This document shows, one piece after another, positions 22,590 through 57,164 of a stretch of 64,000 nucleotides of DNA. Location of the stretch: the NCBI GenBank assembly GCA_951406725.2, contig OX597822.1, forward strand, positions 46,686,001 to 46,750,000, given 5' to 3'. Every line of letters begins with the position of its first letter. Position 1 is the first letter of the stretch. Both the position numbers and the translations under genes were made by a program. Source of the DNA: Octopus vulgaris (Eukaryota). The notes under the pieces are model-generated. The model did not search any database. It was given only the letters and a program-made list of their open reading frames with translations, and was not told the DNA's origin.

Positions 22590-23119
22590 TACAGTTCTAT
22601 ATTTAAGAGATGAGGAATTTTGTACATTATTTACATTTGATGGATATTTGTCCTCATCTTGTTTGTTGTTAACACAACTTTTCGGCTGATATACCCTCCA
22701 GCCTTCATCAGGTGTCTTGGGGAAATTTCGAACCTGGATTCTCATTCCTAAGGTATATTTCAATGTAATTATTATTATTATTATAAGCCCTAAAATTCAC
22801 TCTATAATTGCCCATGGGCATATGTCGTAGTGGTTCAGAACGTGGGCTACTAACCCCAAAATTCCAAGTTCGATTCCAGGCTGTGACCTAAATAATAATA
22901 ATTACTTTATTTATATTTCACGGATAACACAACGTTTCGGCTGGTATACCCTCCAGCCTTCATCAGGTGTCTTAGGGGAAATTTCGAACCTGGGTTCTCA
23001 TTCTTACGGTATTTTCCCCAAAACACCTGATGAAGGCTGGAGGGTATATCAGCTGAAACATATTAACAACAAACAAGATAATGACAAATATCTGTCAAAT
23101 TTAAATAATGTAAATAATA
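22590..23119. mobile_element. Palindromic tRNA-headed, hammerhead-bearing element (composite of three arms), 11-bp TSD ACATTCCACAA
   Basis: Minus-strand tail 22590-22785, plus-strand tRNA-like head ~22817-22890, hammerhead motifs at 22671-22716(-), 22926-22971(-) and ~23022-23060(+). TSD at 22579-22589 / 23120-23130. Confidence 0.8.
22926..22971 (-). ncRNA. Intact-looking type I minimal hammerhead ribozyme motif
   Basis: Minus strand GACAC-CUGAUGA-A-GGCUGG AGGGUAUA CCAGCC-GAAAC-GUU-GUGUU: stem I GACAC/GUGUU, 6-bp stem II, palindromic AACGUU stem III (dimer type). Confidence 0.7.
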
Positions 23120-23158
23120 ACATTCCACAACAAAAGATAGATTGGTATATAAAACTGC

Positions 23159-24434
23159 GGATCTTTTCCTTTTGATAGACAGAATTCGACACAATTTCTA
23201 GTTAACTAAACAATTTGAAACTTTGTATACTGGTAGAATGTGTCAAAAGAAAACATTATTTTCACTTGGCTTTTTTGATAAATTTGTAATTCGTTTGTTT
23301 AACGTAGTTTAATTTTTCGAATTTTAACCAATCGTATGCTCTCTTTTGAGCTGAATTCATTTGCTGCGTTATCTATATTGATAAACAAACGAGGAGGGTT
23401 GTGTTGGCATGTGCTAGAATTAACAGCCATATCTCTTAAATCGATGAATTTCGTTGCCCAATATAAATATTAACGATATTTTTTTAATATTTTCTTTTTT
23501 TTTTTTTTTTTACCAAAAGGCTTCTCCCATGGTTTTGAAGGGCCAAAAACAACAAAAACAAAACAATAATATGCCTAAATCGGTCTAGAGTGGGATATGA
23601 GGGTATGCTTGGAGTGTGGGTCGTATTGTAAAAATTTGCGAAATATTTTTCATAAAAGGATGCCCCAGCTTGTCAGAGGCTATAATATAAATTGGGGGGA
23701 AAATCCTCGACACCAGTGCGTAATTGGTACTTAATTTATCGACCCCGAAACGATGAAACATTGATCCCCCATTTCTGGTTTATTTACCTTTTGTGTAAAT
23801 TTGTTCTGGCAAGGGGCTCTATCGACACCAGTGCGTGCGTACGTAACTGGTACTTAATTTATCCCTAAGCCTAACCTCTAACCCTAACCCTATCTCGTGA
23901 CAGCCTTCCGGCATCGGTCACTAGCTTAAGGATAAATTAAGTACCAGTTACGTATTGGGGCCGGTCTAAACAACGGCAGTAATTCGTTATCGATATTAAT
24001 AAATAAACGTGAATTTACTAATAATCGTAAAGAAGAAATTTACTACTAAATATATAAACATGTGTGCACGCACACATGTATGTATAACATTTATGTGTGC
24101 ACGCACACATGTATGTATAACATTTATGTGTGCGGATGACTAAAGAGCGAGACAGACAGAAGAGAGAAGGATGAATAACACGTGTGTGTGCGCGCTGTTT
24201 ACGTAACAGTAAACAGTTTTTAGACACAGCAAATGATTTCAGCTCAAAAGAGAGCATACGATTGGTTAAAATTCGAAAAATTAAACTACGTTAAACAAAC
24301 GAATTACAAATTTATCAAAAAAGCCAAGTGAAAATAATGTTTTCTTTTGACACATTCTACCAGTATACGAAGTTTCAAATTGTTTAGTTAACTAGAAATT
24401 GTGTTGAATTCTGTCTATCAAAAGGAAAAGATCC
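23159..24434. mobile_element. Non-autonomous DNA transposon with 208-bp TIRs and 8-bp TSD (Merlin- or MULE-like)
   Basis: TIRs 23159-23366 / 24227-24434 are nearly identical and start GGATCTTTTCC. TSD AAAACTGC at 23151-23158 and 24435-24442. No transposase ORF inside. Confidence 0.9.
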
Positions 24435-25377
24435 AAAACTGCTTTGTCTAGTTAAGGGTAATGAAATTTAGAGTCAATATATCTGATTTTTTTCAGTGAA
24501 TTGTTGGTGTTGAATCAAATTGGAGAGCATAGGCTAAGAATCACCTGACCATATAAGTCCAGCGGTTATATATATTGTTGGTATTCAGTTACTTAAGATG
24601 TTTACTTAAAAAAAGAGGCAAGGGGATGGCTGTATGTTAAGAGGTTCACTTTGGAACCACCTGATTTTGAGGTCAATCCGACCTTGCAGAATCTTGGGCT
24701 TGTGTCTTCTTCAATAGCCTCAGGCCAGCCAATGACTTGTGAGTGAATCTGATAGACAGAAACTGTGTGGAAGCCCATCGTGTGTGTTTGTGTTTATCCT
24801 CCCACCTCTGCATGACATTTGGTGTTAGTTTGCTTATGTCCTGGTAACTTAGTGGTTCAGCAAAAGAGACTGATAGAATAAGTAACATACTTAAAAGCTT
24901 GGCTACTGAAGCCGATTTCTTTCCCTGAACATTTCAAGGCAGGGCCCCAGCATGGCCACAGTCCAATGATTGAAACAAGTATAAGACGAACAATAAAAAG
25001 AGAGACAGCGATGACTATTAAGAATAAATGATATACAGAGGGTAAAGAAGAAGATATGGGTGAGGGTAAAATTAAAGGTAGTTGTGCCAACTTCACTGAT
25101 ATGAGCTTCTTTTGATTTTTGAAATAAAATCAAAAGAGTTTTGGATGAATTTACTAAAACCACTAATTATATTAATTGTTAAGCTGATGTTGGAAACATG
25201 CCTTAAAAGATTCTTACATAAAATGATAGCAGAAGCTTTTAATTTAAATGTGGACATTTTCAAGTAAAAGCTTTTGTATCAGAGAACCAGCTTGGTTGGT
25301 ATTACTTGAATTAAACAAGTGTTAAATCTGTGGTGATAGTGGTGGTAGTTTTCGGCTGTTCAGATAAAAATTTTGTG

Positions 25378-25760
25378 CAAGCATAGCTGAGTGGTAACAA
25401 GTTTGCATCCCAACCACATGGTTCTAGGTTCAGTCCCACTGCATGGTCCCTTGGGCAAGTGTCTTCTACTATAGCATCAGACCAACCAAAGCTTTGTGAG
25501 TGGATCTGGTGGATAGAAACTGAAAGAAGCCTGTCATGTATATGTATGTATGTGTATCTGTGTTTGTCCTCACCACTGCTTGACAACTGGTGTTGGTGTG
25601 TTTATGTCCCTATAACTTAGTGGTTTAGCAAAAATGATCAATAGAATAAATGATAAGCTTTAATAAGTACTGGGGTTGATTCATTTGACTAAAATTCTTT
25701 CAGGTGGTACCCCAGCATGGCCACAATTTAATAATCGGAACAAAGAAAGACTAAAAGATA
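25378..25760 (+). mobile_element. CORE-type tRNA-derived SINE (resembles octopus OR-type SINEs)
   Basis: A/B-box-like head (GCTGAGTGGT...GGTTCAGTCCC), CCTTGGGCAAGTGTCTT core, internal TG repeat, CAGCATGGCCAC tail. Many copies in both orientations across the window. Confidence 0.7.
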
Positions 25761-26304
25761 ATTCTCTCTCTCTCTCATACATATTTTGTTTTTCAATTTG
25801 GATTACAAAATTCTTGATGTGAACTTGTGTGTTTGTTGTATCTCAGGAGAGTCATTATGCCAGCAATAAACGCATGTAGACAGGGCGCATTATTGATGAG
25901 GCCACAAATGGCAGTGAAAGGACTTTTGACAACCCTAGCTGACTGATGATTAATTAAACAGTTAATTGGCTAAATGTTAGCTAATTGACTAATAATGATA
26001 AAAGGTGCTGGTACCACATGAAAAGATCCCAGCCCATTCTGTAAGGTGGTTGGTTTTAGAAAGGACATCCAGCTGTAAAAACCATGCCAAACCAGATGGT
26101 GGAGGTTAGTACAGTCTGCTGTCTTGTTAGCTCCTGTCAAACCGTCCAACCCACGCTAGCATGGAAGACGGACATTAAATGATGATGGCGGGAAAGAAGT
26201 GAAAAAGAACCAATGTGTGTGTTTATTATTGGCATGAAGACCCTCCCAAGATGCAGCAATATATATAATATATATATTTGTGTTTTGCCTTTTTCTCTTT
26301 ACAG

Positions 26305-28102
26305 ATTTCCTAGGGACCAAGATTGCCATGAAATGTGGATTAAGAACCGAAAACGAAGTCTGCGAGAAGCTATGAAAAGAGAACAAGAAGTGAGTCACCA
26401 AATAAACATGCAACCCAAAGGTAATCCACCACTGATTGGGGCTTGTAAAGGTAGATTGCCTATCAGCAGCAGCAGCAGTGGTGGTAGTAGTAATAGTGAG
26501 AATCCAAAGCCTTTCTCTTATCTGTCAAGGGACAATCCCAGCCATGCTATGATATCAGAAAGGCTCAAGAGTGAAGATCCAGCTGGTCTGGGCTTTAGTT
26601 CTGAACCTCTTATAAAAGACAATAGAGTTCTTACAAACAGTGGTAAAGAAGCACTGAGTTCAAATGTTGAAATTGCTGACAGCAAGGACGATTCCATCGT
26701 GTCATCTTCTACTGACTTTGAAGCGAAGTGTAAAACAATATCATCGCCCAATCCACAGCAGTTGCAGTCTATTGTTCAGATGCTGAAGTCTAGTCAGGGG
26801 GGACTAAGTATTGAGGATCTGGCGAAAAAACTGAATGTACGCTGTGACAAAACTACCATAAAGTTGCTAGAGAGCCTCAACAAACAATTGCAGAGTGAAG
26901 GCAGTTTGTCAAAATCAGAACATTCTGGCCTCCCTGTCACACCTCAAACGCCAAAGACTCCACATAGTCCTCCTCCTGGCTTTCACAGCTTTGATAGGCA
27001 GGCAGGTAATACATTCCGGGCAGTTAATTGCTCTCAGAGGTTAGGCGAGAATTCTAAACTGTTAGAGTGCAAGGATGAGCCTGGTTATGGTAATTCAAAC
27101 AGCAATAATAGCGGCAACTCGGCCTCTATGTGTGGGGTATGTGACATGGCTGACAATAGTAACACTGGTAGTCAGATGGGCCTGCTGCCACCACCAAACA
27201 TAGGGTTACCGCCTTCTGTGTTAAAATATGACAACCCACCCTTATCAGCAGATGGTCATTCACGGAGCAGTAGTAACAATATGGACAACATTTACCATAG
27301 TTGTGTGGGTCCTGACTATGGCCACAATGCCACTAGTAGCAGCAGTATTTCTTCTAGTCTGTCGCCCACCTCACAAGACACCAGCACTGTTTCTTCCTTA
27401 AATGTCAGTTCTGCAGGCAGTAATATTGTTACTTCTCAGGCCATTCTTGATAGTCTAGCCACAGATGTGCTGGTGCCTGCCAAAGTGAATTTTGGATCAA
27501 CACAGACAGTCACTTCAAAAGTTGAATTTGACAAACCTTCTAAGAACTTCCCGTCACCACTCAGTAAAAACCAACCTATTTACCCTTTGGATGATATGCG
27601 CTACCCTCCACCACATCCACATGTGACTCTTCACCATCCGCCTCCTCCCAGTAGTGTAGCTCCTGTTAGTGTTAGTGGCAGTAGCCAAGGCATGCCTCCT
27701 GCAGCAGCTGCAGCTGCCGCCGCTGCTGCTGCCACTGCTGGTGGGAACGATGGCGCTGTGTCTCTCCGAGCGAAAGTGCAAAGTTACTTTGATACGTATG
27801 GGCAGGATGACAGCATGCCACGTCCAAGCCCATCACCATTTGGACTGGTGGCCACACCTCGAGGTGGCATGAGGCGGAGACCCTACCACGGGGCGACATC
27901 CCTTGGCCCACACAACCTTCCTCTTCCCCCTCCACGTAACCCCAGCCACAGGCCGGCCATGCCACCAGTATTGAACAACACACCGCCACCCAACTTGCCA
28001 CCACATTCTATTCCAAGTACTATGAGTTCCAGTGGTGGTGGTGGTGGTGCTAGTGGTAGTGGCGGTGGTGGGCTTTATCAAGGAGGGCATGTTGGGTGGT
28101 AG
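26305..28102 (+). CDS. CDK12: CDK12/13 terminal coding exon: C-terminal kinase extension (QDCHEMW plus basic cluster) and long Ser/Pro/Ala/Gly-rich tail
   Basis: TTTACAG acceptor in the correct phase (GA|A). FPRDQDCHEMWIKNRKR matches the CDK12/13 DCHE(L/M)W extension. Frame open to TAG at 28100-28102. Confidence 0.93.
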
Positions 28103-31100
28103 CAGAATTGATAAAAACATTTGAATACACACACATATTCTCTCACCTGAGCACATTTACACACAGATTTTCACCTATACACAAAACAAATCATTCATAC
28201 ACACACATACACACATTGTTTTCTTTTCTTTTATGAATAGTGCTCTATAATTCAGAAAAAGCTCTGCCAAATGAATTTTTTTTATTTTTATTTTACTTCT
28301 GTCTGTTCATCTTGGTTTTTCTCTTTCTTTCCTCAAAACAGTTTTATATTATTATTTAAGATTTTTTTATATTAATTTTAATTTCTTTTTCATTCCTTCT
28401 ATATTTCCTCACCCTTTTTCCTTCTCTTTCATTTTTTCTTTCTCTCTCTCCCTCCCCATTCTCTCTTGTTTCTTTTTGTCTTTTTTTTTCCTAAATGTTA
28501 TTCAGTTGGTACTTTGGTTCTGGAACTTTTTCAGGATTTCGAAAGCAAATAGACATTGAAAAAGTGGAAATTTATTAAAAAAACAATAATTAAAGTAAAA
28601 AAAAAAAAAAAATGTTCAAAAATTTTTAAAACACAAAAAAAGGAGAAGCAAAAAGAAGCCCCCTTCCTGCCCCAAAATAACAACCAACCAAAACAACAAA
28701 ATTGCGCTGATACTTAACCAAGAAAATAAAATTTAATTAAATAAATGAGAAAATTTCCAAAAAGAAAATTATAATTATTAACCCCCCGCTCCTCTCAAAG
28801 AAATTATATATAAGAAGAAAGAAGACAAGAAAGGAAGAAAAAGAAGAAGAAGACTTGGCTACTACTTTTCTGTAAATGTGAAAAACAATTTGCTGGTTAA
28901 AGGGAGAAAAACAAATAAACAACAGAAAAAACAACAAAGACTGACAGTAATAAAACATGTATGTATGAACTCTGCTTCCAATCCAAAAATTTAAAACAAA
29001 CCCATCCCACCCACTTCCACCTCCCATGTTCATGTAATTCTGTTTGTATCATTTTATTATGATTATTATTATTATTATTATGATGGTGGTGAGCTGGCAG
29101 AATTGTTAGTGCTCTGGGCAAAATGCTTGGCGGTATTCCATCTGTCTTTACATTCTGAGTTCAAATTCTGCCGAGGTTGACTTTGCCTTTCATCCTTTCG
29201 GGAGTCGATAAATTGAGTATCAATTACGCACTGGGATTGATGTAATTGACTGCCCCACCTCCCCCAAAATTTCGAGCCTTATTATTATTATTATCATTCT
29301 GGTGGCAAGCTGGCAGAATCGTTAGTACGTCAGGTGAAATGCTTAGCAGTATTTTGTCTGCTGCTACATTCTGAGTTCAAATTCTGCCAAGGTCAACTTT
29401 GCCTTTCATCTTTTTGGGGATGAAAGACACTGGGGTTGATGCAATTGACTCAGCCCCAAAGTGGCTGCTCTTGTGGCAAAATTTGAAACCATTATTATTA
29501 TTAGTAGTATTATTATTATTATCATTATTGAGGCAGCAAGTTGGCGGAACTGCTAACCTTTCAGACAAACTGCTTAGTGACATTTCACCTCTCTATGTTC
29601 CGAGTTCAAATTCTGCCAAGGTCAACTTTGCTTTTCATCCTTTTGGGGTCCATCAGTGCCGGTCAAGTATTGGGTCAATGCTCTGTATTTGATTACCTCC
29701 CTTTTATGTTCTGGTTAAATTCTCGAGAGTTCAGTTTTGTATTTTATTCCTCTGGTGTCAGTAAGTATTGAAGGTAGCTGAGTGGTTCAGATGTTGGGTC
29801 ATGAGTTTGATGCCAAGTGATGCACTGTATCCTTACTTCGGTTTGTTGAGCTGGAAATTAGTCCCAGCTGAGTGCAGCTACAGTTCCCTGCTCTCTTTTT
29901 CTCTCTCACCAACTGTCACATTCTTGATGTTTCTTTGCATCAAGAGTGAGAGCTGAGTGTGGTGGTGGGAGATCATTTATTTTGAGTCTACTTCTGACTA
30001 CAAGGCGCTAAAAGCAAAGAAAGCATGGTACATTCTTCCAAGCCTTACTCGCATGCAAATGATGGCTATGTTACCTCCCTTAAAATAGGTGACTTCAAAC
30101 AAATATATGCTTAATTACATGTATGGAGTACTTTTTCTCCATTTGTATTCTCAAATGTGTGTGTTTAAAAGAAAGAGAGTGTTGGTTAATTTCAATATTT
30201 GTCATTTAGTCAGGGAATGAAGGGCAAGAGTAACTAGAAGAAATGGGATAGTTAGCTTCAAACCAGAGACTTGACTCTGCTAAAAGCTCCCTAGTCCCTG
30301 ATGGTAGTGTCTCCCCTCCAAAAACTGAGAATACAAGGAAATAGAGCCAGCAAATTCCACAAGGCATATCATCTGATGCTCTAATAATTCTGGTAATTTG
30401 TTGCTCTAGACAAAGTCTTTAGTTTGTCATCCCCCAAAGAAATAAAAAACAAAGCTGATCGTACCAGAATTTGAACTCATTCTGCAGAGAGCCTAAAACG
30501 TTTACCCCCAACTATTTGATCAGCCTCTAACAACTCTGGCAATTTGTTTCCTATTAATGTTCTTATTTAAGCCAAAAAAAAAAGAAAGAAAGAAAAAATG
30601 TGTTGAAATGTTGAAGAGAGGAGGATTATGTTTTTTCAATCTTAAATGACTTTATCATCATTATTATTGCTATTGTTATCATTATCACCTCTTCTTCCCT
30701 CCATCACCTCACCACAAAAATCTTTCATCACCTCCATCACCACAAAAACTTTCTCCCAACAATGTGTGTTACATCCATGGCACTGTCCACCTTATCTGTT
30801 CTTGGATTGGCAGCTTTGTTCAAAACTTTCCTTTTTCTCTGCAGAACCATACGTGTATCATTTATTTCTGCTTTCTTATTGTTTTTTGTTGTTGTTCTTT
30901 TTTTTTTTAGATTTTCTTTCTTATTCCTTTATCCATCAGCCATTACACTGACCATTATTCTGTTTTTACCTTTTATTCTTTGTTTTAAATATCATGTAGT
31001 AGTCATAATAGTAGTAATAATAACAACAGCAGCACATGATTTCATCCCATCTTGTCTCTTGTATTTCACTATTGTTTGCAAATGTAACTATTTATGTGAG

Positions 31101-31138
31101 TGTGTGCCATACAAGTACCATAGTGTATTTGTAATTTA

Positions 31139-31140
<2 letters not shown>

Positions 31141-31199
<59 letters not shown>

Positions 31200-31200
31200 T
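31141..31200. repeat. (ATT)n microsatellite
   Basis: Directly visible; it explains the poly-Ile ORF 30762-31268. Similar tracts at ~37237-37289, 39128-39190 and 63679-63718. Confidence 0.95.
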
Positions 31201-34200
31201 TAATTTTTATTATGGTTATTATTCTTATGTTTTTTGGGGCTTTTTTTTTTTTTGTAGTTTGTGCATAGTTAATGACTTGGCTTCAATTCCAAGTTGAAAC
31301 TGTTGTATGTGATTTCATTAATCATAGAAAATGATGCATGTGTATCATATCTGTTAGATTTTAGACTTTAGGGTAAATTACAATTCATTCAACAGGCATG
31401 TTTAGCAGGGTCTTTGTTCCACCAACTATTTTACAATGCCTAATTCCCTGACAAGAACTTTGTGGCAGGTGTCAGTATTAGTAATATGTGGGCATTATTA
31501 GCTAGACTGGAAAAACAGCATTTGTTCTGGCATTTTATGTTCAGGGCCCAGGTTCTGCCTAGGTTGACTTTGCCTTTCATCCCTTCAGAGTCATTAAATA
31601 CCAGTTGAATATTGGGACCAGTGTAGTCAACTTAACCTTCCCCCAAAAATTGTTGGCATAATGCCAAGATTTGTAAACATTATTAGCTAGACTATTCTTT
31701 CTTTAATAACCAGAGTGTCTTTTACTCTCTGTGACAATCAGTTTATACCTTCTTTCACCATTATCCCCCAACTATATTTTCTATAAGAACCAGACCACCA
31801 TTTTCTCCTCAATACACCTGCCAGGCTGTACTACTTCTTCTCTATAACAATTATACTATATTTTCTCTTCAAAACAATAGCTACCAAGAAATCATTTATT
31901 CTACCCTTTTCTGCAGTTCTCTTTCTGATCATTTTCTGTTGTCAAAGATTAGTGATCACATAATTGGGGAATGCAGCTAAAGTAGGCTGCCTTCTTATCC
32001 AGCTGGGAACTGGTTCTCTTTGGATTCCGGCTCATACAATGTATCTCAATTTATAGATATCATAACGTCTCATTAGCCTACTAATTAAACTTTGTTAACA
32101 ATAGTGACGCTCTTAACCTGTAACACACAGCTGCTATTAACAGTTTGGTCTTTATCTCAAACTTTGGTTTCTCTTACACATCTGATTCAAATAGAGTTTG
32201 CTTTAAGGCACTTGTTAAATTACTCTCTTCTTCAAAAGTTCTAATGCTTTTTTTCTTTCTCATCTTTTCTTCCTTGATTTTCTCCCCACTTCTCTCTTCA
32301 CTCTATCACCCCTCCCTCTCATCTTCTACTGCTGTTTGCTTACATCAGATTCCTACATCACAGTGCCGATACTTAAGAGTGGCTGACCTGGTAACGGATA
32401 ACCTAAAAGTAGCATCAACTCCCCAGTGCAATTCATTCCAAATCCCAAATCACTTAAGTGAAATTGTAGGTTCGTATGGAATACAGCACTCTCACACCAC
32501 ACCAAATTGGTCAGTTCACGTTGCTCCCTCTTATTTAATGTTCTTGTACCTGTGGTGGTTGTTGTTGCTGCTTTGATGTGAACTGACTGAACATGTTTTT
32601 CTAAAAACTTAACCATCCAGCTGTGTGTTTTATTCATTTGTTTCTGTATCCACCTCTGACAGACATCCAGATTTCACATTTATTCAAAGTGGGACAGACT
32701 ACATTATGGTATCTTTCTGTTGCTTCATCTATCTGAGTTCAAATTTCCTTCCTGGTTTTGGACCTGGCATTCAGGCCGAGGCTGGTATCAAATTTTATGA
32801 CCCCAGAAGGTCATTAAATATTTGGCATTAATGTACTCTTCCCTTTATTCTTTCTACTTATAGATTTTCATAAAGAAAGCTCTCATTTTATTTTATCCCA
32901 GAATAGTAGAGTTGCTGAAACAACCCAGAAAATGAGAATTTCAACATTTTTAATTATCTTGTTACATTCTGAATTCAGACTTTCCTTTTGACGACTCCTC
33001 AAGAATAGGTTTGAAGCTTGGGATTGAGGAAGACATTTAGAGCAGTTAAATGTGTGGTGCATTCCTTGACTGTGTGCTGGTCCTTCCACTCTCCACCTGC
33101 AAATTAATAAAACCACATACACAAAGCACACACTTCTATACTCCATGTCTTTCTGTTCCTGATAAAATTCATAAAAATCATTTGTTGCTTTTCCTCATCA
33201 CAGAATCCCTCACTGCCTTACCAGCCAGCTCTAACTCAGAGTTTTCATCCCCCCCCACCACCACCACTATGCTTCACCTCACAGATCTCACTGCACCTGC
33301 CCCTGTTATTCACCCCCCTCCATTCACCGTTTCACTGCTTACCTGCGTCTTCTACATTTCGCGACAGATTTTAATTTCTCACATCTCTTTTCTCTGCCTT
33401 GTTTATCTTCCAGTTGGCTGAGACCTTGACCAGAAATATATTTTTGTTGTAAGTCTTCTTCATTGGAAAATTCTCTCTGCTTGTGGTTATGGATGAGCAA
33501 ACTACTTCACTTGGTCACTATTTACCTTTTTTTATATTTGATTTATTATTATTATTTTTTTCCTGATTCCTGTTTATTATATTTGTTATTATCCCCCCCC
33601 CCATTTCTTTTTTTATAATATTTACTTATTTAATGCCACTTTTTAACCATTCCACAAACCCTCTTTTTTTCTTTATTTCACATTTTCATTCTTTGTTTTT
33701 GTTGTTTTTTTTTGTTTTTTTTTTTTGTTTTACCCCTCTGAAAGCTCTTGTACTTCTGCCCCACTTCTTTTTTTTATTGCCCCCTCCTTTTTTTTTTCCT
33801 TTCTGTTTCATTTTATTTATTATCATTTTTTTTCTTCTTCGTCTATGTGTGTGTGTGTATTTGTGTATGGCTAGTAAAAGCAGAGATGACAGATTCTAAA
33901 CACAATGGCAAAAGAGAGAAAAATTTAAAAGAAATGAAACCCAGTGCTCTATACATTATACACACTTGTTGGATTGAAGTGTTGGTAGAGTGATCAGCTA
34001 TGAGTGTATAGAGAACATTCTATAACATAAGAAAGGCACTGTTTATCACACTTCTCTCTCTCTCTCTCTCTCTCCACACACACACATATATATATATATA
34101 TAACTCTATGTACATGTGTGTGTGTATATATATATATATATAATATATATATACACACACACATATATATATATATGTAAATATATATGTAAATATATAT

Positions 34201-34985: not shown

Positions 34986-35041
<56 letters not shown>

Positions 35042-35132
35042 TTTGTTTTTATGTCAAGTTATAATAAAAAGCAATTTAAATCTAAACTGAAGAATTACAC
35101 AATTTGTTTTAGTTGAGTACATATTTATTATT

Positions 35133-35403
35133 GTTCTATATTTAAGAGACGAGGAATTATGTATATTATTTACATTATTTACAATTGATGGATATTTGTC
35201 TTCATCTTGTTTGTTATTAACACAATGTTTCGGCTGATATACCCTCCAGCCTTTATCAGGTGTCTTGGGGAAATTTCAAACCTGGGTTCTCAGGTTCAAA
35301 ATTTCCCCAAGACACCTGATGAAGGCTGGAAGGTATATCAGCCGGAATGTTGTGTTAATAACAAACAAGATGAGGACAAATAGTTGTCAAATTTAAATAA
35401 TGT
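35133..35403. mobile_element. Palindromic hammerhead-bearing element (headless copy), 12-bp TSD ATATTTATTATT
   Basis: Same family as 22590-23119. Two inverted arms, each with a mutated CUGAUGA/GAAA core. TSD at 35121-35132 / 35404-35415. Confidence 0.8.
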
Positions 35404-36000
35404 ATATTTATTATTCTCTAACAAGAATGATGTTGATAGTGACTTTGAGGTTTTAAGCTAAGCAAACCAAAACTTCAAAGTTACAGTCAATACTATCCTT
35501 GTGATATATAAGACTTTTGGATTTACTTGAATTTTTTTTTTTTATTGAAAATACATTCCTATGTCAAAATTGAAACATAGAATATGTAAAAGTTGATTCT
35601 CATTCATTAACATGTTGCTTGGATTGGTTTCACAAGCTGTTCCTTGGCCAAAATGCTATCCCTGTTCATGACTTGCTGCTATTCCCTTTGCTTCACATCC
35701 TTTTTCAATTGACCCTCTTGTGCTGGCCATAGCTTTTTTTTTTTAAATGCAGCACAAAAAAAACCCTGCTTCTATTGGTAATACTGTCTCTGCCTGGCTT
35801 TTTCTTGTCTCCCATCTCTTGTCAGCTTGCTAACATTGGCGGTCACTAATATTTTGTATGCATCACTGTTATTTCCTTATCCCAGTGAGTATAACATGGA
35901 CATGCGTGTATAAGACTGAGCCGCCCTCATTTGTATGACAACCTCATACATTGCTAGTTGTGGATAAAAGCTTTTAAACATTTTATTTTATTTATATATA

Positions 36001-36051
<51 letters not shown>

Positions 36052-36553: not shown

Positions 36554-36584
<31 letters not shown>

Positions 36585-37252: not shown

Positions 37253-37288
<36 letters not shown>

Positions 37289-37672: not shown

Positions 37673-37707
<35 letters not shown>

Positions 37708-39123: not shown

Positions 39124-39175
<52 letters not shown>

Positions 39176-41853: not shown

Positions 41854-41885
<32 letters not shown>

Positions 41886-44659: not shown

Positions 44660-44700
44660 GTCCAATATTTCGGGACATACAAGTCCCTTCTTCAGGGTTA
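44660..44700 (-). ncRNA. Hammerhead-like motif of a further Penelope-type repeat
   Basis: Minus strand CC-CUGAAGA-A-GGGAC UUGUAU GUCCC-GAAAUAUU-GG: 5-bp stem II, palindromic AAUAUU stem III, but only a 2-bp stem I. Confidence 0.45.
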
Positions 44701-45546: not shown

Positions 45547-45773
45547 AGGCGGTGAGTTGGTAGAAATGTTAGCACGCTGGGCAAAATGCTTAGCGGTATT
45601 TTGTCTGTCTTTACATTCTGAGTTCAAATTCTGCCAAGTTCAACTTTGCTTTTCATCTTTTTTGGGGTTGATAAATTAAGTACCAGTTGTGTACTGGGGT
45701 TGATCTAATTGACTGGCGCCCTTCCCAAAAATTTCGGGCTTTGTGCCTAAATTAGAAAAGATTATTATTATTA
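45547..45773 (+). mobile_element. tRNA-derived SINE with conserved central domain (CTTTGCCTTTCATCCTTTCGGGGTCGATAAATTAAGTACCAG) and (ATT)n tail
   Basis: Head GGCGGTGAGCTGGCAGAA...GAGTTCAAATTC. Copies at ~12040-12240, 21725-21945(-), 29083-29660, 45775-45985, 61122-61340 and the 57240-58970 array. The central domain resembles Nin/Meta-type SINE domains; superfamily unverified. Confidence 0.75.
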
Positions 45774-48499: not shown

Positions 48500-50040
48500 A
48501 AATCTGTCTTAGGGTTCCTCCCTCCAGATTTGTGTAAGAATTTATTTGTTTCGCTATTTTTAAAGCTCAATAAATTACCCCACTTGGTTGATGCAGTCAG
48601 TACTGCTGTCTTGTCTGGTGCTGTGATTCCAGTAATTATCAGGATGCAAGATTTGTATGGAGTTACCTGTTCTGAGATGAGCAGCTAAACGCTCGAGAAC
48701 CTCATCTGCCTTGGGTTCATTGGGGTGTCTGTGAGTGACCTTCTTCTGGAGCCAATTCCATGACACGCTAATCAACCCATAGATAGGACCCGGGTATGAT
48801 GTGGTTCCACACTCCTCAAAATTTTTGGAACTCTCGAACCAGACCCTGATACTAGTTTCTGATTGGAAAATTGATGTGTGGGTCCTCAGCCCTGACAATA
48901 ATCGCACTGATTTTGCCAAGTGTTGGTCACATATTTATTGAATTCCTCATAGCAAAATGGGTATCAGACTGCTGCTTTCACCACTGTAATTTACAGTCAT
49001 ACCTAGAACATATAGACTATAATTGGCTCTAATTAGATTCAGCCACTTCGTAAATAATCTGTAGACATGATATTCCAGAGTCCATTGCAATCAGGATATC
49101 CTATGGCACACTATGATCAACATACTCAAAAGCTGCTGCAAAAGTCATGAAGCAAATGATGGTTCACTATTAGTAGCTCCAATGTTTTCCCAGAACCCTT
49201 TTCTGATTGGAAATTTGATTTCCAATCAGCCCTGACAATAATCACACAGATTTTGCCAAATGTTGGTCACATGTTTATTGAATTCTTCATAGCAAAATGG
49301 TATTAGACTGCTGCTTTCACTACCACAAGCCTGGACAAAGATGAGCTAGATGCCTGTATTTTCTATGCAAATACTGTATTCTATCATTATCTTTCAAGTC
49401 AGGGGATCTTGTAACCACAAAAATATATCTCTCTTAAGTGCTCATTCATGCTAACTTGTGAGACACAACTTATAAGTGCAGTGGATTTATTTAAGGTAGA
49501 AGTGTTTGGTCTATGATTAGGCTTTACATTTTGTGTTGAACCCTGAAGTTTGTTGATGTTATCAGATTAATTCTCTTCAACATCTCTTTCTCAGATGGCA
49601 GTGCCTTTGATCATGTGCTTAGTTGTCTAAGAGGTGAACTCTTCTGTGATACAGTCATGCCAGAGTCCATCATAAGACCATAATCCAGTTGTGCCTGAGT
49701 TTCTCATTGGGTAGTATAAACAGTGAGGCTTTCAGCTGAAAACAGACAGGCATTATCAACTTGGATCTTGAATCAACAAATGGTCCTTGCATTTAAATGT
49801 GACTTTACATTAGACAACATTGATTGTCTGGCATGGTCATCTTCTGCGCATGATGCTGAAAGTTAATGGACTGGAATTCCAACAGAAGGTAAAGTATATT
49901 TCAACCAAGAATTGAACCTGACTACAGGAGACTCCACTTGAGGCTCACTTTTCCACCGAGCTTTACAAAATAGTCTAATCTCGATTCTTGCCTTAGCAAA
50001 CTAACTTTGTGCAGTCTGTAGCAGACTGTTTCAAAAATCC
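48500..50040 (-). mobile_element. Heavily decayed RTE-like LINE RT remnant
   Basis: Minus-strand frame near 49170-49080 reads IICFMTFAAAFEYVDH, resembling the RT motif DFAAAFDSV of RTE elements. Many stops; boundaries uncertain. Confidence 0.45.
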
Positions 50041-51527
50041 CATTATCACCAGCTAGTGACCCAACAAAGTATTGTTTGCCTTGCTAGAAATAACATTTGT
50101 TCTGACTAGTCTTGGGAGGCCCACAAAGGTTCTAGGCTCTGTTCCTCTTCAAGATAAAGTTACATCTTTTCATGTTAGGACAGTCAATGGAATCACTGTA
50201 CCACCATTACTGTTCAGTCCTCACATAATCAAACAATGGACAAAACTGGACAAGTATTGTTTGCCTTGCTAGAAATAACAGCCAAATCTCTCAGTTCATA
50301 CTTTGCTGTCATTGAAAAGAGGACACGCATTTAATGAATTGGTTGTGGCTCTTCTTGATCAGAAGTGATTTGCTGTTAAACAACCACTATGTCTACTACG
50401 GCAGATACACATTTATTACACATGTTAGTGACCTCATGCTTGAGATTTTGATATTCTCAACAATGTCTTCATTCCTTCATCCTAGTTCTCTTTATCATCA
50501 GGTATTACATCATTTAACATCTGTTTTCCATGATGACATGGATAGGATGGAGCTGCACCAGGCTCCAGTCATCTATTTTGGCATGGTTTCTGTGGTTAGA
50601 TGTCCTTCCGGTTGCCAACCGCTTTACAGAGTGTACTGGGGCCATGCCTTTTACATGGCAGCAGCACCAGTGCTTTTACAAGGCAATGACATCACTGTTT
50701 CTAATGTGGCATTGGCATAGGTGCCCCTTAGGTGGAACCATCACAGGTAATTATTTCATATGCTAAAGTGTTGAGCTAAATGTCTTAGTATATACTATAT
50801 TTGATGGCATATAAGACACCCAAAAATTATCTCTAAAAAAATCACCTCAGATTTTATATACAAAGTTAAACCTCCTATAAGCTTTAATACAGTAAAAACA
50901 TTTTTACCTGAAAATATACTGAAATACATTACTGAAATTGAGGTGTGTCTAATATAACTGTGCGTTATTTATGAGACATTACATTGGTTAGTATTAGATT
51001 TGTCTTGTTTGGTCTAAATTCATATTCTGTCCAGGCCAGTTTTGTCCATTGTTTGATTATGTGAGGACTGAACAGTAATGGTGGTACAGTGATTCCATTG
51101 ACTGTCCTAACATGAAAAGATGTAACTTTATCTTGAAGAGGAACAGAGCCTAGAACCTTTGTGGGCCTCCCAAGACTAGTCAGAACAAATCTGTTGGTGT
51201 TAAGTTTAAAACATCTGGAGGTAGATGCTCCAATAAGTTCAGGCTTGATTTCGTTCCATTAATTAATGTAATGAATGATATGGAACCTTTTAGTTCATTT
51301 TTTTTCATCCTATCTCTCTCCCTCCCCATCCCTCTCTCTCAAGAGAAGTTTCCAGTAAGTGAATGATTGAACATCTATTCATATTTGTAAATATTGAATG
51401 AATCTCACCTGTCGCTTTGTGGGGCCCAATGCTTGCATTGATTCTTGATTTGTCCAGGTATAAACAGTTACTTCTTAGTAATACTATCTACGTTTATGTT
51501 TGCTGTATATATGTGTGTATATATATT

Positions 51528-52190
51528 CGGGGTGCAATGAATAAACTGTCATCTAAATTACGCAAAAATGAAAATAACACTGACATCTCATTTTAACAGA
51601 GATATTTACCAAAATTACATAAAAATATCTTGAAATACTAAAGAGTGAATTTTTAAAATAAAATTGCCATTGGCTTCAACCACAGCCTCCAGACGATTTT
51701 GGAATCTCCTGCAACTCTTCTGGACAGTCTTCTTATTTAAGTTGGTGAATGCTGTCAAAATCTTCGCCTTGAGTTCATCTTTGGTGTTACAGGGAGTTTT
51801 GTTGGTCTCTCACTCAACTGCGTCCCATACATAATAATCAAGGGGGTTGCTGTCTAAGGAGTTAGGTGGCCAGATGTTGGAGGTGATGTGGTCACAGAAA
51901 TTGTCTGACAGCCATGACTGGGTTCTCCTGCTTTTGTGGCATGGTGCAGAGTCCTGCTGCTAGACATAGGGTCTTCCAGGCACTTGATGTAGGACGTGTG
52001 GGAAGATGAATGGAGGTATAACATCACCATCACTAGTGATCACTCTCAGTACTCTGCACTATCCTCAGATCGACACCCAAACACTCTGAAATGTTCATAT
52101 TGGAGCTTCTGGTGTGAGTGCCAAGCAGTACAGCATGTGGTTTCCAAATTTCTGGCAGAATGAATTGCATCATGGTGCTGTTTTTTTTCA
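51528..52190 (-). mobile_element. Decayed maT (DD37D) Tc1/mariner transposon with internal deletions
   Basis: Minus strand PYV*QQDSAPCHKSRRTQSWLSDNFCDHITSNIWPPNSLDSNPLDYYVWDAVE*; 37 residues between the second and third catalytic Asp; in-frame stops. Confidence 0.85.
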
Positions 52191-52269
52191 TAGACAGTGC
52201 CCAACTGACCCTACTATATTGGGTATTATTTGATTCTTTCACACGCACAATTTTCACTAAGAAATTTTT

Positions 52270-52711
52270 AAAAAAAACTCAGATTTTTTGTGTGGAATCA
52301 AGTACCCTGACCTCCCCTTATTTTTGTTCAGAAAAAAAGGGGTGGGTGGGAAACCAAACCCCTTCCTCCATCCCAGAATCATTGGATTTTTTTTTTTTTT
52401 TATTCGACTGAATTCTGGTGACCTAATATGCTACAAAACGTTTTATGGGTCCGGGAAACGGGATGGGGTGGGGTGGAACCCTCAGTAATTTGACTCCCCA
52501 CCCCCATTTTCAAATATTTTTCTCTATTTCTTTCTTTAATGTAATGAATGACATTCAATAGAAAATTCAAAGTTTGAAATAAATAAGTGAAGATGAAGAG
52601 GTTATAGAAGTTACCCCCACCTTTTTTTTTTTTCCAAACCAAAATAAGGGATTTGCAGCATATCAGGAAGTCAGGGTACTTGATTCCATGCAAAAAATAC
52701 AGGTTTTTTTT
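52270..52711. mobile_element. MITE with ~40-bp imperfect terminal inverted repeats
   Basis: TTTTTTGTGTGGAATCAAGTACCCTGAC versus GTCAGGGTACTTGATTCCATGCAAAAAA, plus subterminal inverted segments. Confidence 0.6.
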
Positions 52712-52715
52712 CTTA

Positions 52716-53095
52716 GTGCAGGAGTAGCTGTGTGGTAAGTAGCTTGCTTACCAACCACATTGTTCCAGGTTCAGTCCCACTGCGTGGCACCTTGAGCAAG
52801 TGTTTTCTACTATAGCTTTGGGCCAACCAAAGCCTTGTGAGTGGATTTGGTAGACAGAACCTGAAAAAAGCCTGTCATATATATGTGTGTGTGTGTTTGT
52901 TTGTCCCGTCCCCCCAACATTGCTTGACAACCAGTGCTGGTTTGTTTATGTCCCCATAACTTAGCGGTTCGGCAAAAGAGACCAATAGAATAAGTATTAG
53001 GCTTACAAAGAATAAGTCCTGGGGTCGATTTGCTGGACTAAAGGCAGTGTTCCAGCATGGTCGCAGTCAAATGACTGAAATAATTAAAAGAGTGA
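52716..53095 (+). mobile_element. Near-complete CORE-type tRNA SINE
   Basis: GCAGGAGTAGCTGTGTGGTAAGTAGCTTGC...GGTTCAGTCCCACTGCGTGGCACCTTGAGCAAGTG...GTCAAATGACTGAAA. Same family as 25378-25760, 47444-48295 (interrupted) and 62625-62990(-). Confidence 0.75.
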
Positions 53096-54827
53096 AAATT
53101 GTGCAGGTGAAAGGATCAAAATTTACCCTATATTGTGTAGTCAACAAAATCAAAAACAAAACAATGTGCTGCCTGACTGGCTCCCATGCTGGTGGCATGC
53201 AATAAGCACCTTTCATGTGTGGGTCGTTGCTAGTGCTGCCTGACTGGCTTCCTGTGCCGGTGGCATGTAAAAAGCACCATCCAAACGTGGTCGATGCCAG
53301 CCCCCTTGCCCCAACTGGCTCCCATGCTGGTGGCACCTAAAAAGCACGTGCTACACTCACGGAGTGGTTGGCATTAGGCAGAGCATCCAGCTGTAGAAGC
53401 CTTGCCAGATCAGATTAGAGTCTGGTGTTGGCTTGCCAGTCCCCAGTCAAACCGTCCACCCCATGCCAGCATGGAAAACTGATGTTAAACAATCATGATG
53501 ATGTACATGCACGAAATCATGCTGGTGGTTCCAAAAAAGCACCTGCTACACTCACGGAGTGGTTGGCGTTAGGTTATTTGTTTCCAGTGATCCATGAAAA
53601 TTATGTCTGGCCATGGAAAAATATTACCTTGCTTGGAATATAGTGCTAATAACTTGTTGTTAATAGTAACCTTACAAGAGACATTTACTGAGTTGAAGAT
53701 CTGTGGAGTGTCTCTAAAACCTATCCCATGTCATCAGTTTGTTCAGGAGGAACGTAGCAGAATTCCTCAACAACAGGCTAGACCAAATATTGTTCACTGA
53801 TCCATCATTCTTCTATAGAATATGCTTCTACGCTTGTAATCCCTTAAGACCACAGCCATGTTGACAATATCAGCTAGTCATTTAGAGTTTATGAACCACT
53901 AGTACAGGTTTCAATTTTGGCCCTCCTCAACCACACTTTCAACCTCTGTAGCAACTTGGTAAATTTTCTATGCCTTTGTGTGTGTGCATTTCTGTAAGCA
54001 AATGTGCATAGCTAATTAAAATAAGCCATAGTTATATCTGTATGTATCATCGTCTTTGTCATTTAACCCCTGTTTTCCATGCTGGCATGGGTTGGATGGT
54101 TTGACAGGAGCTGTTAAACTGGAGGGTTACACCAGGCCTCTATTTGTTTTGGCATGGTTTCTATTGCCGGGTGCCCTTCCTACCTCCAACCACTTTACAG
54201 AGTTTACATGGCACTGGCACGTGTGCTTTCTATATAGCACAGGCGTTTTCTTCATGATGCCAACACAGTTGCTTTTCTCGTGGCACCAGTACCCACAGGG
54301 TTGCCAAGTGGCTGTGTGTCAGGTGAGAGGCTGGATTACAGAAGGTCGGGGATACCTGTCTTGCATTCAACAGTTGCAAGATTGTGGTTTCTATTCCTGG
54401 GTTGGGCAGTGCATTGTGTTCATGAGCTCTGATGCACTCACTCGTAAATGTGTAATCCTGTGATGGACTAGCATCCCATCCAGGGGGAATGTTGCAAACC
54501 TGGTCATTTACCCACTTTCACCTGACCAAAGGCAGTAGTGTCCAGGTATGGATGATTACAATGATTCGCTAGAGTGATGATTCGACAGAACCTTTAAAGC
54601 TGTGGCCCTCAACCGTTGATTTCTGCTTTTCTCAGTTGGATCCTCATAATCAGTCAGTATTTAAAAAATCTTATTTTTATGCTTAAATATTATTATTGTC
54701 TCAAAGTATTCTGTGTATTGTAGAAATATAACCAATTTTTAGCATCAAAGCCTTATGTGAATGCCTCAACAGCCATATGAACCCTGGTTCATATGAATCA
54801 CTGATTTAAAGTGTAGGCCAAAATACT

Positions 54828-55068
54828 CTACAGTTCTATATTTAAGAGATGAGGAATTATGTACATTATTTACATATGGATAGCAGTTAAGAGCATGAGC
54901 TATTAACCCCAAGATTCTGAGTTCGATTCCAGGCAGTGACCTGAATAATAATAATAATAACATTGAAAAATACCTTAGGAATGAGAATCCAGGTTCGAAA
55001 TTTCCCCAAGCCACCTGATGAAGGCTGGAGAGTATATCAGCCGAAATGTGTTAACAACAAACAAGATT
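54828..55068 (+). mobile_element. tRNA-headed, hammerhead-bearing element with short inverted tail, TSD AAAATACT
   Basis: Inverted tail ~54830-54875, then tRNA-like head (...GAGTTCGATTCCAGG), (AAT)n, body and CUGAUGA-A-GGCUG...CAGCC-GAAA. TSD at 54820-54827 / 55069-55076. Confidence 0.8.
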
Positions 55069-55651
55069 AAAATACTTTACGGTGTGTGTTACCTCCTCTC
55101 CACTCTGAGATTAAATCTCACCAAGGTCAAAGTACCAGTCCAGAATGGTATATTGGTGGAATGGATGAGATACCTTGTATTCAATCCAGTTCTTGGGTAG
55201 TAAATTTAATCGCTCACCCAGTTTAACACCACCATCTGGTTATTGGGTGCCTGTTAGAAGCGTTTGGATCCGATCTCTCTGACTTTAGGATGACATTCTC
55301 CTACCAGTCTTATAGGACCTGAAAAAACAGAAAATAAAAAGGCTACCCTCTCTGAACCATAAGCATGGAAACAAAGTTTGCTTAAGAAGTGCAAACCCAC
55401 GTCCAAAAGTTTTTACAAACGAGATTGATTTTTATTCAATCTAAATATCAAAATGATGACAGGTATAATAATTATAATTATAATTATTGTTATATTTGGT
55501 TGGCCCAAGGCTATAACAGAAGACTCTTGCCCAAGGTGCCACACAGTGGGACTGAACCCAGAACCATGTGGTTGGGAAGCAAGCTCCTTACCACATGTAT
55601 ATGTACTTGACATCATTTGATGGTTGTAAATGAATGTCAGCAGAATTCTAG

Positions 55652-55963
55652 TTTATGCATGCCATATAACCCCTCATAACCTCTTTAATTTTTGGAATTT
55701 TCAGAAAATGATTGGTGCATCATTTAAGGCTTATTTAGCTGTTATTTTTAGCATATCTCACAACCACCTGATACCCTCCTCTTTTCTTTATCACTGACGT
55801 ATTGATGCTTTTCAATATCTTTCTCCCCATAAACACATTTAGTGGTCTATTTTGCTGGGATTTAAGCCAAAAATTCAGACTGTTTTAAACTGTGATTGAA
55901 AAAAACTTTTCTGAAAATTCCAAAAAATAAAACTGTTACAATGGGTTATATGGTGTGCTTAAA
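55652..55963. mobile_element. MITE with ~55-bp TIRs
   Basis: GCATGCCATATAACCC...TTTTGGAATTTTCAGAAAA versus TTTTCTGAAAATTCCAAAA...GGGTTATATGGTGTGC. Confidence 0.65.
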
Positions 55964-56533
55964 GCAGAATTCTACCTGAAAATCATTGTCATACAAGTGT
56001 TGATTGTTTCCAGTCATATGTGGAAAGCGTATCTGGCAATGGGAAAAGGATGGCAACAAGAGCATCTGCCTCATAAATTCTACCTGATCCATGCAAGCAT
56101 GGAAAAATGGACGCTAAATGATGCTGGTGTTGAATTCCTGTAGGGGAAGTGAGATTTTAAACTTACATCTTGGAGGAATTCAATTAACCCTTTAGCATTT
56201 AAACCGACCAATATACTCTCCCTGTTTTGTGTTCAAAGTGACCAGACTCTCACACTTGCCCTACAATATTATTCTAAAAATAAACACTCATGTCATTGAA
56301 ATTTCAAAGCTACGAGATAATTTATGTTTAATTCAAAACAACATGAATAAATAAGTATTATACTTGACAGAGTAATTTGAATGCCAATGGGTTAAGCTTT
56401 TTGTTGCCATATTTCTGTTGGAATACAGTGCCTTTGTTTCAGTTAGTTTTGAAAATAATGCAGATTTTAGTAAAATAATTTTGTCATGTGTGGAACATAG
56501 CATAAAATTTTGATGGAAGGTTTTAATTTACAT

Positions 56534-57164
56534 TATTTACATTGGACAGATATGTGTCCTCATCTTGTTGTTACCATAATGTTTCGCCTGATGTACTCTC
56601 CACCCTTTATCAGGTGTCCTGGTGGAATTTCAAGCCCAACCCTTTATTTGACTAATGGGAGTACTCTGTTCTCATTGCTAAGGTATTTTTTGCTGATGTT
56701 ATTATTAGGTCGAGGAAAAAGTTTGTGCATTGTGTTAAAATATTGCTTTTTTATATATTTTTGTGGTGTGTGTGTTCATTCAGTTCATTATTTTAACATG
56801 CTGCACAAACTTTTTCCTCAACCTATTATTATTTATTCAAGTCAATGACTGCAATTGAACGTGGAATCTTGAAGTTTGTAGCCCGTGCATATAGCGTAGT
56901 GGTTAAGAGTGCGGGCTACTAGCCTCAAAATTCTGAGTTCAATCCCAGTCAGTGACTTGAATAAATAATAACATCAGTAAAAAATATCTTAGGAATGAGA
57001 ACAGAGTATCCCATTAGTCAAAAAAAGGGTTGGGTTTGGAATTCCACCAGAACACCTGGAGAGTACATCAGCCGAAACGTTATGTTAACAACAAACAAGA
57101 TGAGGACACATATCCATCCATTGTAAATAATGTACGTAATTCCTCATCTCTAAAATATAGAACC
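56534..57164. mobile_element. Head-to-head palindrome of the tRNA-headed hammerhead element (subfamily with a longer body), 15-bp TSD GGTTTTAATTTACAT
   Basis: Left arm (-) and right arm (+) meet at ~56885. A box TAGCGTAGTGG at 56892-56902, B box GAGTTCAATCCC at 56935-56946. TSD at 56519-56533 / 57165-57179. Confidence 0.8.
56705..56826. mobile_element. ~120-bp mariner-type MITE nested in the (AAT)n spacer of the palindromic element
   Basis: TAGGTCGAGGAAAAAGTTTGTGCA / TGCACAAACTTTTTCCTCAACCTA TIRs in a TA context. Confidence 0.7.

Follow-up and report, generated by a model that had tools for sequence, protein, structure and literature searches.

Four palindromic insertions in the window

We analysed a stretch of 64,000 nucleotides from Octopus vulgaris (contig OX597822.1, positions 46,686,001 to 46,750,000), here called the window. 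An earlier note on this DNA had described four insertions of a short repeat, all of them palindromic, and we confirmed these, positions included, in the sequence (Table 1). A direct repeat of about 11-14 bp was present on both sides of every insertion (4/4). The whole unit, however, was not intact in any arm in the window. The two boxes of its tRNA-like head, taken as A and B boxes from the general box consensus, were present as claimed (A in insertions 1 and 4; B in 1, 3 and 4), but insertion 2 has no head. The (AAT)n linker was also present; it arose by expansion of the A-rich linker that an older subfamily has. The end proposed for the unit lay near the true one; the family ends a few bases past AAATATAGAAC, and its last ~30 nt occur on one arm only. 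The hammerhead core nucleotides were intact in three of the seven window arms scored, and helix III and stem I were additionally kept at only one of the window hammerheads, at 22926-22971 (-). The claim that the unit has no ORF did not hold, since the body has an ATG, and 52 open codons run across the hammerhead and tail in insertion 1 (minus arm).

Table 1. Parts of the four insertions in the window (pLTR, pseudo-LTR; positions counted from the first nucleotide of the window).
Feature	Position	Strand	Remarks
Insertion 1, left target-site duplication	22579..22589	.	11 bp; right copy 23120-23130
Insertion 1, tail-bearing arm	22589..22764	-	pLTR body and tail
Insertion 1, tail-bearing arm, ATG	22745-22743	-	52 open codons of the element's ORF
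Insertion 1, tail-bearing arm, hammerhead	22671-22716	-	helix III altered
Insertion 1, stop of the coding element's ORF and 37-nt spacer	22773..22815	+	TATA-like motif about 22781-22786
Insertion 1, tRNA-like head	22816..22889	+	A box 22823-22833, B box 22868-22876
Insertion 1, additional inverted body fragment	22925..23015	-	hammerhead 22926-22971, the sole fully intact one in the window
Insertion 1, tail-less arm	23013..23118	+	hammerhead through proximal end
Insertion 1, right target-site duplication	23120..23130	.
Insertion 2, left target-site duplication	35121..35132	.	12 bp; right copy 35404-35415
Insertion 2, tail-bearing arm	35133..35292	-	no head; core altered
Insertion 2, tail-less arm	35291..35407	+	no head
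Insertion 3, left target-site duplication	54820..54831	.	12 bp, 1 mismatch; right copy 55069-55080
Insertion 3, tail-bearing arm	54829..54878	-	short
Insertion 3, tail-less arm	54873..55067	+	head 54873-54944 (B box 54921-54929), (AAT)n, body with ATG
Insertion 3, hammerhead of + arm	within 54873..55067	+	no cleavage triplet
Insertion 4 (older subfamily), left target-site duplication	56519..56531	.	13 bp; right copy 57165-57177
Insertion 4, tail-less arm	56526..56888	-	partial head
Insertion 4, insert interrupting the - arm	56706-56825		~120 bp, inverted ends
Insertion 4, + arm	56884..57163	+	head: A box 56892-56902, B box 56937-56945
Insertion 4, remainder of + arm	within 56884..57163	+	older-type body with ATG, hammerhead core deleted, tail

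The unit is the pseudo-LTR of a coding element

The repeats belong to a high-copy family (2377 candidates; the 40 scored were 94-96% identical, far beyond chance). A pattern search for RT motifs gave 96 matches, all from a single family, while the reversed control gave none. In 16 of 30 fetched RT-motif loci the head lay ~1 kb downstream, right after the ORF, and the junction was shown in 14. Among loci selected on the ORF 3' end, this end continued into the head in 30/30; among those selected on the ORF 5' part, the tail adjoined it exactly in 20/30. The order observed was ORF stop, 37-nt spacer, head, linker, ATG, hammerhead, tail and rest of the ORF. The whole unit (tRNA-like head, hammerhead and 'tail') is thus the pseudo-LTR (pLTR) of a protein-coding Penelope/Poseidon-type element: it starts 37 nt after the stop of the RT-endonuclease ORF, and also encodes the first ~52 codons of this ORF. 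A relative (P0005, 52% identical) has the same hammerhead-shaped N-terminus.

The ORF has ~825 codons (825-850 aa in relatives) in a unit of 2.6 kb (majority 2617 nt). Its RT domain matched PF00078 (E 4e-9), and the C-terminal domain matched PF01541-positive Neptune endonucleases (E 1e-5 pairwise, 1e-10 with a profile); the Pfam GIY-YIG model gave no score on two copies, both broken. When the translations were compared by eye with Neptune ORFs, the Zn-finger-like linker between RT and EN was absent, unlike in Neptune. A partial tandem and an inverted 5'-truncated arrangement were present, as in Penelope/Poseidon PLEs. The ORF domains, linker, pLTR, tail and arrangement, set against published descriptions, point to the Penelope/Poseidon-type label. 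Neptune-type families from a GIY-YIG search were also considered as the partner, and were rejected because the unit has no match at their 3' ends.

The suspected link to a Penelope RT/GIY-YIG machine was therefore borne out, as a coding element with an RT and a C-terminal endonuclease carries the unit. The autonomous Penelope ORFs that the earlier note proposed to look for exist, and share not only the hammerhead and tail but the entire unit, head included. Its picture of a separate SINE-like parasite borrowing only the tail has to be given up, since the coding element carries all of the unit as its pLTR and the consensus is the same for short and coding-linked copies.

Palindromes and hammerhead

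We evaluated 48 palindromes, after removing one locus listed twice. A target duplication of at least 8 bp (8-16 bp long) was found in 34/48, compared to 3.8% of 286 mismatched pairs, and exactly one arm was tailed in 43/48, with a tail of ~30 nt. The two arms have two different 3' ends, with a single target duplication around both. Head-to-head arms, a one-arm tail and duplications of this length are known Penelope features. Direct tandem arms were seen in 2/30 tail-selected loci (L017, L028), the others being single or head-to-head; the head-to-tail array with a hammerhead per unit that marks non-LTR retrozymes was not found.

The family hammerhead has a 5-bp stem I, CUGAUGA, one additional A, a 6-bp stem II and GAAA, with a self-complementary AACGUU at the helix III position. 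This consensus agrees with the dimer-type (type I) hammerhead recognized earlier, and predicts a ribozyme. All core bases were kept in 72/140 arms, and inserted hammerhead copies decay neutrally. An Rfam scan gave no hammerhead match; its MIR9486 matches merely reflect the palindromes.

Short copies compared with coding-linked copies

Short copies were far more numerous than coding ones and begin at the head, as expected if there were a true SINE, mobilised in trans, whose own master genes had arisen from the pLTR or from mini-tandems with internal deletions. Internally deleted units do exist (L224, L237-L240), and short copies were slightly nearer the consensus (93.3% vs 90.7% for coding-linked copies, in sets chosen differently). 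However, the majority sequences of the two showed no difference over 132 + 76 columns, no allele separated them at p<0.02 (about 30 vs 30 arms, a small sample), and minor alleles were common to both. Coding and short forms also occurred in both subfamilies. Furthermore, in the available text on the anole element, its protein needed ORF sequence past the RT start, which short copies would lack if the same holds here. We consider separate SINE masters improbable. The copies do have the A/B-box head of tRNA-derived SINEs; they are not, however, non-coding sequences sharing only a 3' tail with a partner, and no master lineage distinct from the partner was seen (about 30 vs 30 arms).

The tRNA-like head and the 5' ends

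The tRNA-like head of insertion 1 scored 24.9 bits with RF00005, below the 29-bit cut-off, and ARAGORN found no tRNA. The head was closest to tRNA-Arg (51 identities, among 30 fetched tRNA loci covering few isotypes). Two subfamilies retain the A and B boxes, with changes at degenerate positions, while the cloverleaf has decayed (pairing in acceptor stem 5/7, anticodon 3/5, T 3/5). The TATA-like motif is identical in both subfamily majorities.

We observed that 25/29 head-selected copies begin at -9..+2 of the head, the mode being the A at -2, ~30 nt downstream of the TATA-like motif. The expected share was 6.9% (binomial P 2e-25), with the expected stop rate taken from small hand tallies (15/29; 14/28). 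In the older subfamily, 12/21 arms start at the head against 10% expected (hand tally). Most short copies thus begin at a tRNA-like start signal within the pLTR, which makes Pol III the likely polymerase for the element; judged from sequence, the Pol III idea of the earlier note is probably right.

Could RNase P, cutting in the tRNA-like region of a longer transcript, have made these ends? They do cluster at the tRNA 5' boundary, but the mode is at -2 rather than +1, with ends out to -9, and the stems are broken in a head where ARAGORN sees no tRNA; this origin appears very improbable.

The other alternative is that these are ordinary 5'-truncated Penelope copies, with a Pol II promoter. The head would then be passive, left over from an old tRNA or SINE insertion, and RT stalling or snap-back at a hairpin would have produced the ends. 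The spacer and head start do form an imperfect hairpin, 4/25 copies stopping at the head are hairpin-centred palindromes, the 5' ends spread over -9..+9 rather than falling on a single base, and 9/21 older arms read through the head. Adineta pLTRs, moreover, have TATA + Inr and inverted-junction palindromes, with no tRNA mentioned in the accessible part of the paper (PMC3846280). The other 21/25, however, join other sequence, and the mode is at one purine. In coding copies, 3/4 of the upstream pLTRs reaching the head read through it, a poor fit to an intrinsic 86% stop, and the boxes are retained while the stems decay. We regard truncation as unlikely. The read-through in 3/4 also indicates that long templates usually do not begin at the head.

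T4 runs were absent from the 2617-nt majority and from three older copies (3887 nt in total), whereas five Neptune pieces had 25 in 8047 nt. This fits Pol III, but the deficit is modest, from which the truncation reading gains. For the 2617-nt unit, P was 0.005 with a mononucleotide and 0.025 with a codon shuffle, but non-significant under the other two nulls (dinucleotide, 0.055; second-order Markov, 0.23). Low Phe content is common to close relatives, which counts against the T4 argument, and one young copy had 4 T4 runs.

Contigs from seven sequencing runs with five organism labels contained the family, with the ORF end and head bridged in three runs and loose ends at the head start in four. 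As such contigs give neither RNA start nor level, they are no evidence of transcription.

A model for the short copies

Together, these results lead us to the reading we consider likely: the repeats are short pLTR copies of a Penelope/Poseidon-type element whose head is a Pol III promoter, with its predicted start where most of them begin. In vitro, according to the available text, the anole Poseidon protein cuts both target strands, extends them, and initiates reverse transcription at two sites inside the RNA, which it uses mainly in uncut form (PMC11167929). By analogy, Pol III would start transcription at the head, and staggered nicks 10-15 bp apart would prime two cDNAs, one from the distal site (tail present) and the other from the proximal site (tail absent), which would then join head to head. 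On RNAs begun at the Pol III site, RT would run off after ~290 nt and give a SINE-like copy, so that short copies would come from the same masters as coding copies. Processing by the ribozyme, suggested earlier as the insertion route, is unsupported, since copies keep the cut site joined and the anole enzyme mainly used uncut RNA.

More tentatively, and at less than even confidence, we propose that this is an autonomous coding retrotransposon whose pLTR has captured a tRNA-Arg promoter, from which Pol III transcribes the element end to end, its 2.6-kb sense strand having been kept T4-free. Its SINE-like run-off copies would then show a SINE arising within its partner and not through capture of a tail. 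In this reading, hammerhead cutting and circularisation could rejoin the upstream ATG to the ORF, for cap-free translation.

Pol III normally makes no protein-coding RNA, and coding retroelements are taken as Pol II transcripts; to our knowledge, PLE promoters are poorly known. If the pLTR tRNA promoter works, this PLE would have a defined start site and Pol III would transcribe a long ORF; SINE-like repeats could then also arise by a second route, the capture of a promoter within the partner. With its tens of thousands of genomic products, the family also lends itself to tests of the two-primer model of PLE insertion. Annotation tools would file the copies as a SINE family, though they are Penelope ends.

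Comparison with known systems

The octopus SINEs OK, OR1 and OR2, reportedly described by Ohshima and Okada in 1994, are also tRNA-headed repeats; we set them beside the present family by description. OR2 is listed as a CORE SINE in the available text of one paper (PMC4758252).

Schistosome SM-alpha and Sj-alpha are likewise short repeats with a Pol III promoter and then a type I hammerhead, but the portions available call them SINE-like and often tandem and name no coding partner (PMC6765202, PMC8490949); the octopus unit forms the end repeat of a coding element, and its insertions are head-to-head pairs. The TRIMp3 elements Cassandra, Helenus and Ajax have a small-RNA-derived Pol III promoter in a terminal repeat, but, as far as the accessible text goes, are non-autonomous LTR elements of 0.3-1.3 kb (PMC10886601), whereas the octopus element is a PLE with an ~825-codon ORF. 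Animal non-LTR retrozymes are also short hammerhead repeats related to pLTRs, but head-to-tail arrays are part of their definition, and the text available mentions neither tRNA nor Pol III (bioRxiv 10.64898/2026.07.22.740005).

From the minimal type I hammerheads of metazoan PLEs, as given in the part of the report at hand, the octopus ribozyme showed no difference: both have a short helix I, a long helix II, an unpaired base before stem II and a monomer without helix III (PMC4209133). The closest likeness is to Poseidon_Ac of the green anole (PMC11167929) and Adineta Pen2a (PMC3846280), which, in the available texts, have an ORF with RT and C-terminal GIY-YIG, a pLTR and tail encoding the ORF N-terminus, a hammerhead overlapping the ORF start, an inverted 5' pLTR, an optional ~30-nt tail and a short target duplication. 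The octopus pLTR opens with a tRNA-derived head (A and B boxes), where most short copies begin; the Adineta paper mentions no tRNA and proposes a TATA/Inr promoter. The palindromes, tail and target duplications are already known from Penelope, and the tRNA head is the unusual part.

The window insertions and the unit

The earlier note had placed four insertions in the window, and all are present at these positions, each as a head-to-head palindrome (table). A direct repeat of the target-site duplication type flanks all four. The unit that it described (a tRNA-like head with A and B boxes, an (AAT)n linker, a body, a hammerhead and a tail) holds as a composite over copies, but no single arm in the window combines the head with an intact hammerhead and the tail. 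The head is missing from insertion 2, the plus arm of insertion 4 lacks the hammerhead core, and only one window arm keeps the full hammerhead. Insertion 4 belongs to an older subfamily (loci L241-L270), where the N-terminus before the hammerhead is 9 codons longer and an A-rich linker replaces (AAT)n. The unit had also been described as having no ORF; this had to be abandoned, as the hammerhead is preceded by an in-frame ATG, and the minus arm of insertion 1 has 52 open codons.

Features of the window and of one fetched locus
Feature	Position	Strand	Description
Insertion 1	22590-23119		palindrome
Insertion 2	35133-35403		palindrome
Insertion 3	54828-55068		palindrome
Insertion 4	56534-57164		palindrome, older subfamily
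Hammerhead	22926-22971	-	full
Insert in insertion 4	56706-56825		~120 bp, inverted ends, within the (AAT)n linker; looks like a small MITE
U2 snRNA match	4120-4290	+	48.4 bits, slightly above the 46-bit cut-off
Inverted-repeat pair	23159-24434		211 nt, 98%, ~0.8 kb apart; starts 40 nt from insertion 1; like a young terminal-inverted-repeat element
Inverted-repeat pair	50095-51190		155 nt, 100%, ~0.8 kb apart; like a young terminal-inverted-repeat element
Open frame	L063:7920-8999	+	360 codons; putatively sulfotransferase-like

Besides these, the window holds three or more dispersed families that look SINE-like (D5/D9/D10, D7/D17/D18 and D8/D12/D20), with 4-12 copies each.

Across the genome (2.8 Gb, 227 contigs), the claimed linkage was borne out for head and body: the head was found in 25 of 30 tail-selected loci (in one as part of a neighbouring insertion), and of 30 loci selected on the head, 27 had the body behind it. 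Evenly spaced stretches totalling 400 kb held 4 family insertions, and ~370 kb fetched for other purposes held 3 more. This extrapolates to about 25,000 insertions genome-wide (Poisson range roughly 10,000-50,000).

A coding Penelope-like element carries the unit

With 150 of 6136 candidates scored, a GIY-YIG search returned families of Neptune type, another type of Penelope-like element (PLE), with intact 781-aa ORFs. These were rejected as the partner, since no 3' end resembled the unit in 30 loci and 20 longer stretches. One young Neptune-type PLE (L061-L065) keeps its 781-aa ORF intact, and an open frame of 250-405 codons lies upstream and overlaps it. This element also has a hammerhead-like motif of the U3-A8 type, and its targets are (TA)n.

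A pattern of two Poseidon-type RT motifs gave 96 matches, all of one family, while the reversed control gave none. The head lay ~1 kb downstream of the RT match, 37 nt past the ORF stop, in 16 of 30 fetched loci; the others were broken or deleted ahead of the head position. In all 30 loci selected on the ORF 3' end, the ORF ran into the head. The tail passed directly into the ORF in 20/30 loci (3 more were shifted by small changes), and the reading frame continues across the ribozyme and the tail. The encoded protein contains an RT, and its C-terminal domain can be aligned with the Neptune endonucleases; the GIY-YIG Pfam model gave no score on two broken copies. A related protein, P0005, has 52% identity over the RT and the same N-terminal pattern. 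All 60 copies examined were decayed, with ~90% identity to their majority. A Penelope ORF sharing hammerhead and tail, for which the earlier note had proposed a search, exists, and the four insertions are members of a real Penelope/Poseidon family whose pseudo-LTR (pLTR) is the whole unit.

The proposal of a separate SINE-like parasite does not survive, because the head directly follows the coding ORF and the short and coding-linked consensus are the same. A true SINE lineage is likewise very improbable: the two kinds of copy showed no majority difference, and minor alleles were common to both. Some family units (L224, L230, L237-L240) are internally deleted, with tail and 5' part of the ORF followed by a jump back into the pLTR; they are candidate non-autonomous masters.

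Palindromes as single insertions

After dropping one locus listed twice, we had 48 palindromes, 20 of them picked on the tailed arm. Exactly one arm carried the tail in 43 (both arms in 2, neither in 3), and in 23 of the 28 not so selected. Direct repeats of 8-16 bp surrounded 34/48, compared with 3.8% of 286 mismatched pairs; 11 had no flanking direct repeat. One tailed arm together with a flanking duplication indicates that each palindrome is a single insertion event, and the missing poly(A) tail would follow from internal priming.

Most short copies begin at the head

Starts fell within -9 to +2 of the head (negative positions lie upstream) in 26/30 head-selected loci, or 25/29 without the query copy. 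The expectation was 6.9%, from the loss over the preceding ~110 nt (15/29 tail-selected arms survive; hand tally). The remaining four copies reach -24, -115, -284 and -810. The commonest start was an A at -2, with a second cluster at -5 to -7. In the older subfamily 12 of 21 arms stop at the head and 9 read through (hand tally).

A TATA-like motif, identical in both subfamilies, begins 34 nt upstream of the head, and the A- and B-box differences between subfamilies fall at degenerate positions of the consensus used for comparison. tRNA-Arg was the best match to the head among 30 fetched tRNA loci, the Rfam tRNA score was under the cut-off, and ARAGORN found no tRNA in the window. The tRNA stems are broken; this and the commonest start at -2 make it highly improbable that RNase P cutting produces the 5' end.

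The 2617-nt majority contains no run of four T (T4, the Pol III terminator); Neptune pieces have 25 such runs in 8047 nt. The expected number was 4.6 under a mononucleotide null (P 0.005), 2.5 dinucleotide (P 0.055), 1.5 second-order (P 0.23) and 2.9 codon (P 0.025). Three older copies had none in 3887 nt, and three young copies had 4, 1 and 0.

These sequence features suggest that Pol III start at the head with RT run-off probably generates SINE-like palindromes from the masters of the coding copies. Pol III would begin just upstream of the head, and the element's RT would prime at two internal sites, on both nicked target strands, and run off where the RNA begins; the resulting SINE-like palindromes would share their masters with coding copies. 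Pol III transcription of the whole ORF is less certain than the start at the head, and we regard it as somewhat doubtful. Counting against the Pol III reading, a hairpin lies at the head start and forms the centre of 4 of 25 junctions, and of the 4 upstream pLTRs in coding copies, 3 continue through the head. Structure-induced truncation at the hairpin, with a passive head, would fit the first two observations; we consider it unlikely, as the read-through argues against an intrinsic stop too. The read-through implies that long templates are multimeric, circular or started further upstream.

Comparison with known elements

What sets this family apart from the known PLEs compared here appears to be the tRNA-derived head in its pLTR. 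In mainly open-access literature outside Repbase, Dfam and the 1994 octopus SINE paper, screened mostly by title, we found no coding PLE described with a tRNA promoter in its pLTR. Excerpts of PMC13282606, a paper on repeats in Octopus vulgaris, mention neither hammerheads nor ribozymes; the family may be present in its supplements.

The following comparisons draw on excerpts of the sources. Pol III promoters are already known with a hammerhead in schistosome SM-alpha (PMC6765202, PMC8490949) and within the LTRs of TRIMp3 elements (PMC10886601), and pLTRs are described as a source of short hammerhead repeats (bioRxiv 2026.07.22.740005). The hammerhead matches the minimal type of PLEs (PMC4209133). 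Palindromic arms, a one-arm tail and target duplication are ordinary PLE features, with tails of 30-40 bp and inverted copies being general (PMC8557442). In anole Poseidon (PMC11167929), the protein cleaves both strands of the target and extends them, reverse transcription starts from two internal sites whose distance equals the tail, and the hammerhead overlies the ORF start, uncut RNA being used. Adineta Pen2a (PMC3846280) resembles the family in its inverted pLTR, its one-arm tail (31 bp) and its short duplication (9 bp), and its pLTR codes for the first 12 residues, 22 including the tail.
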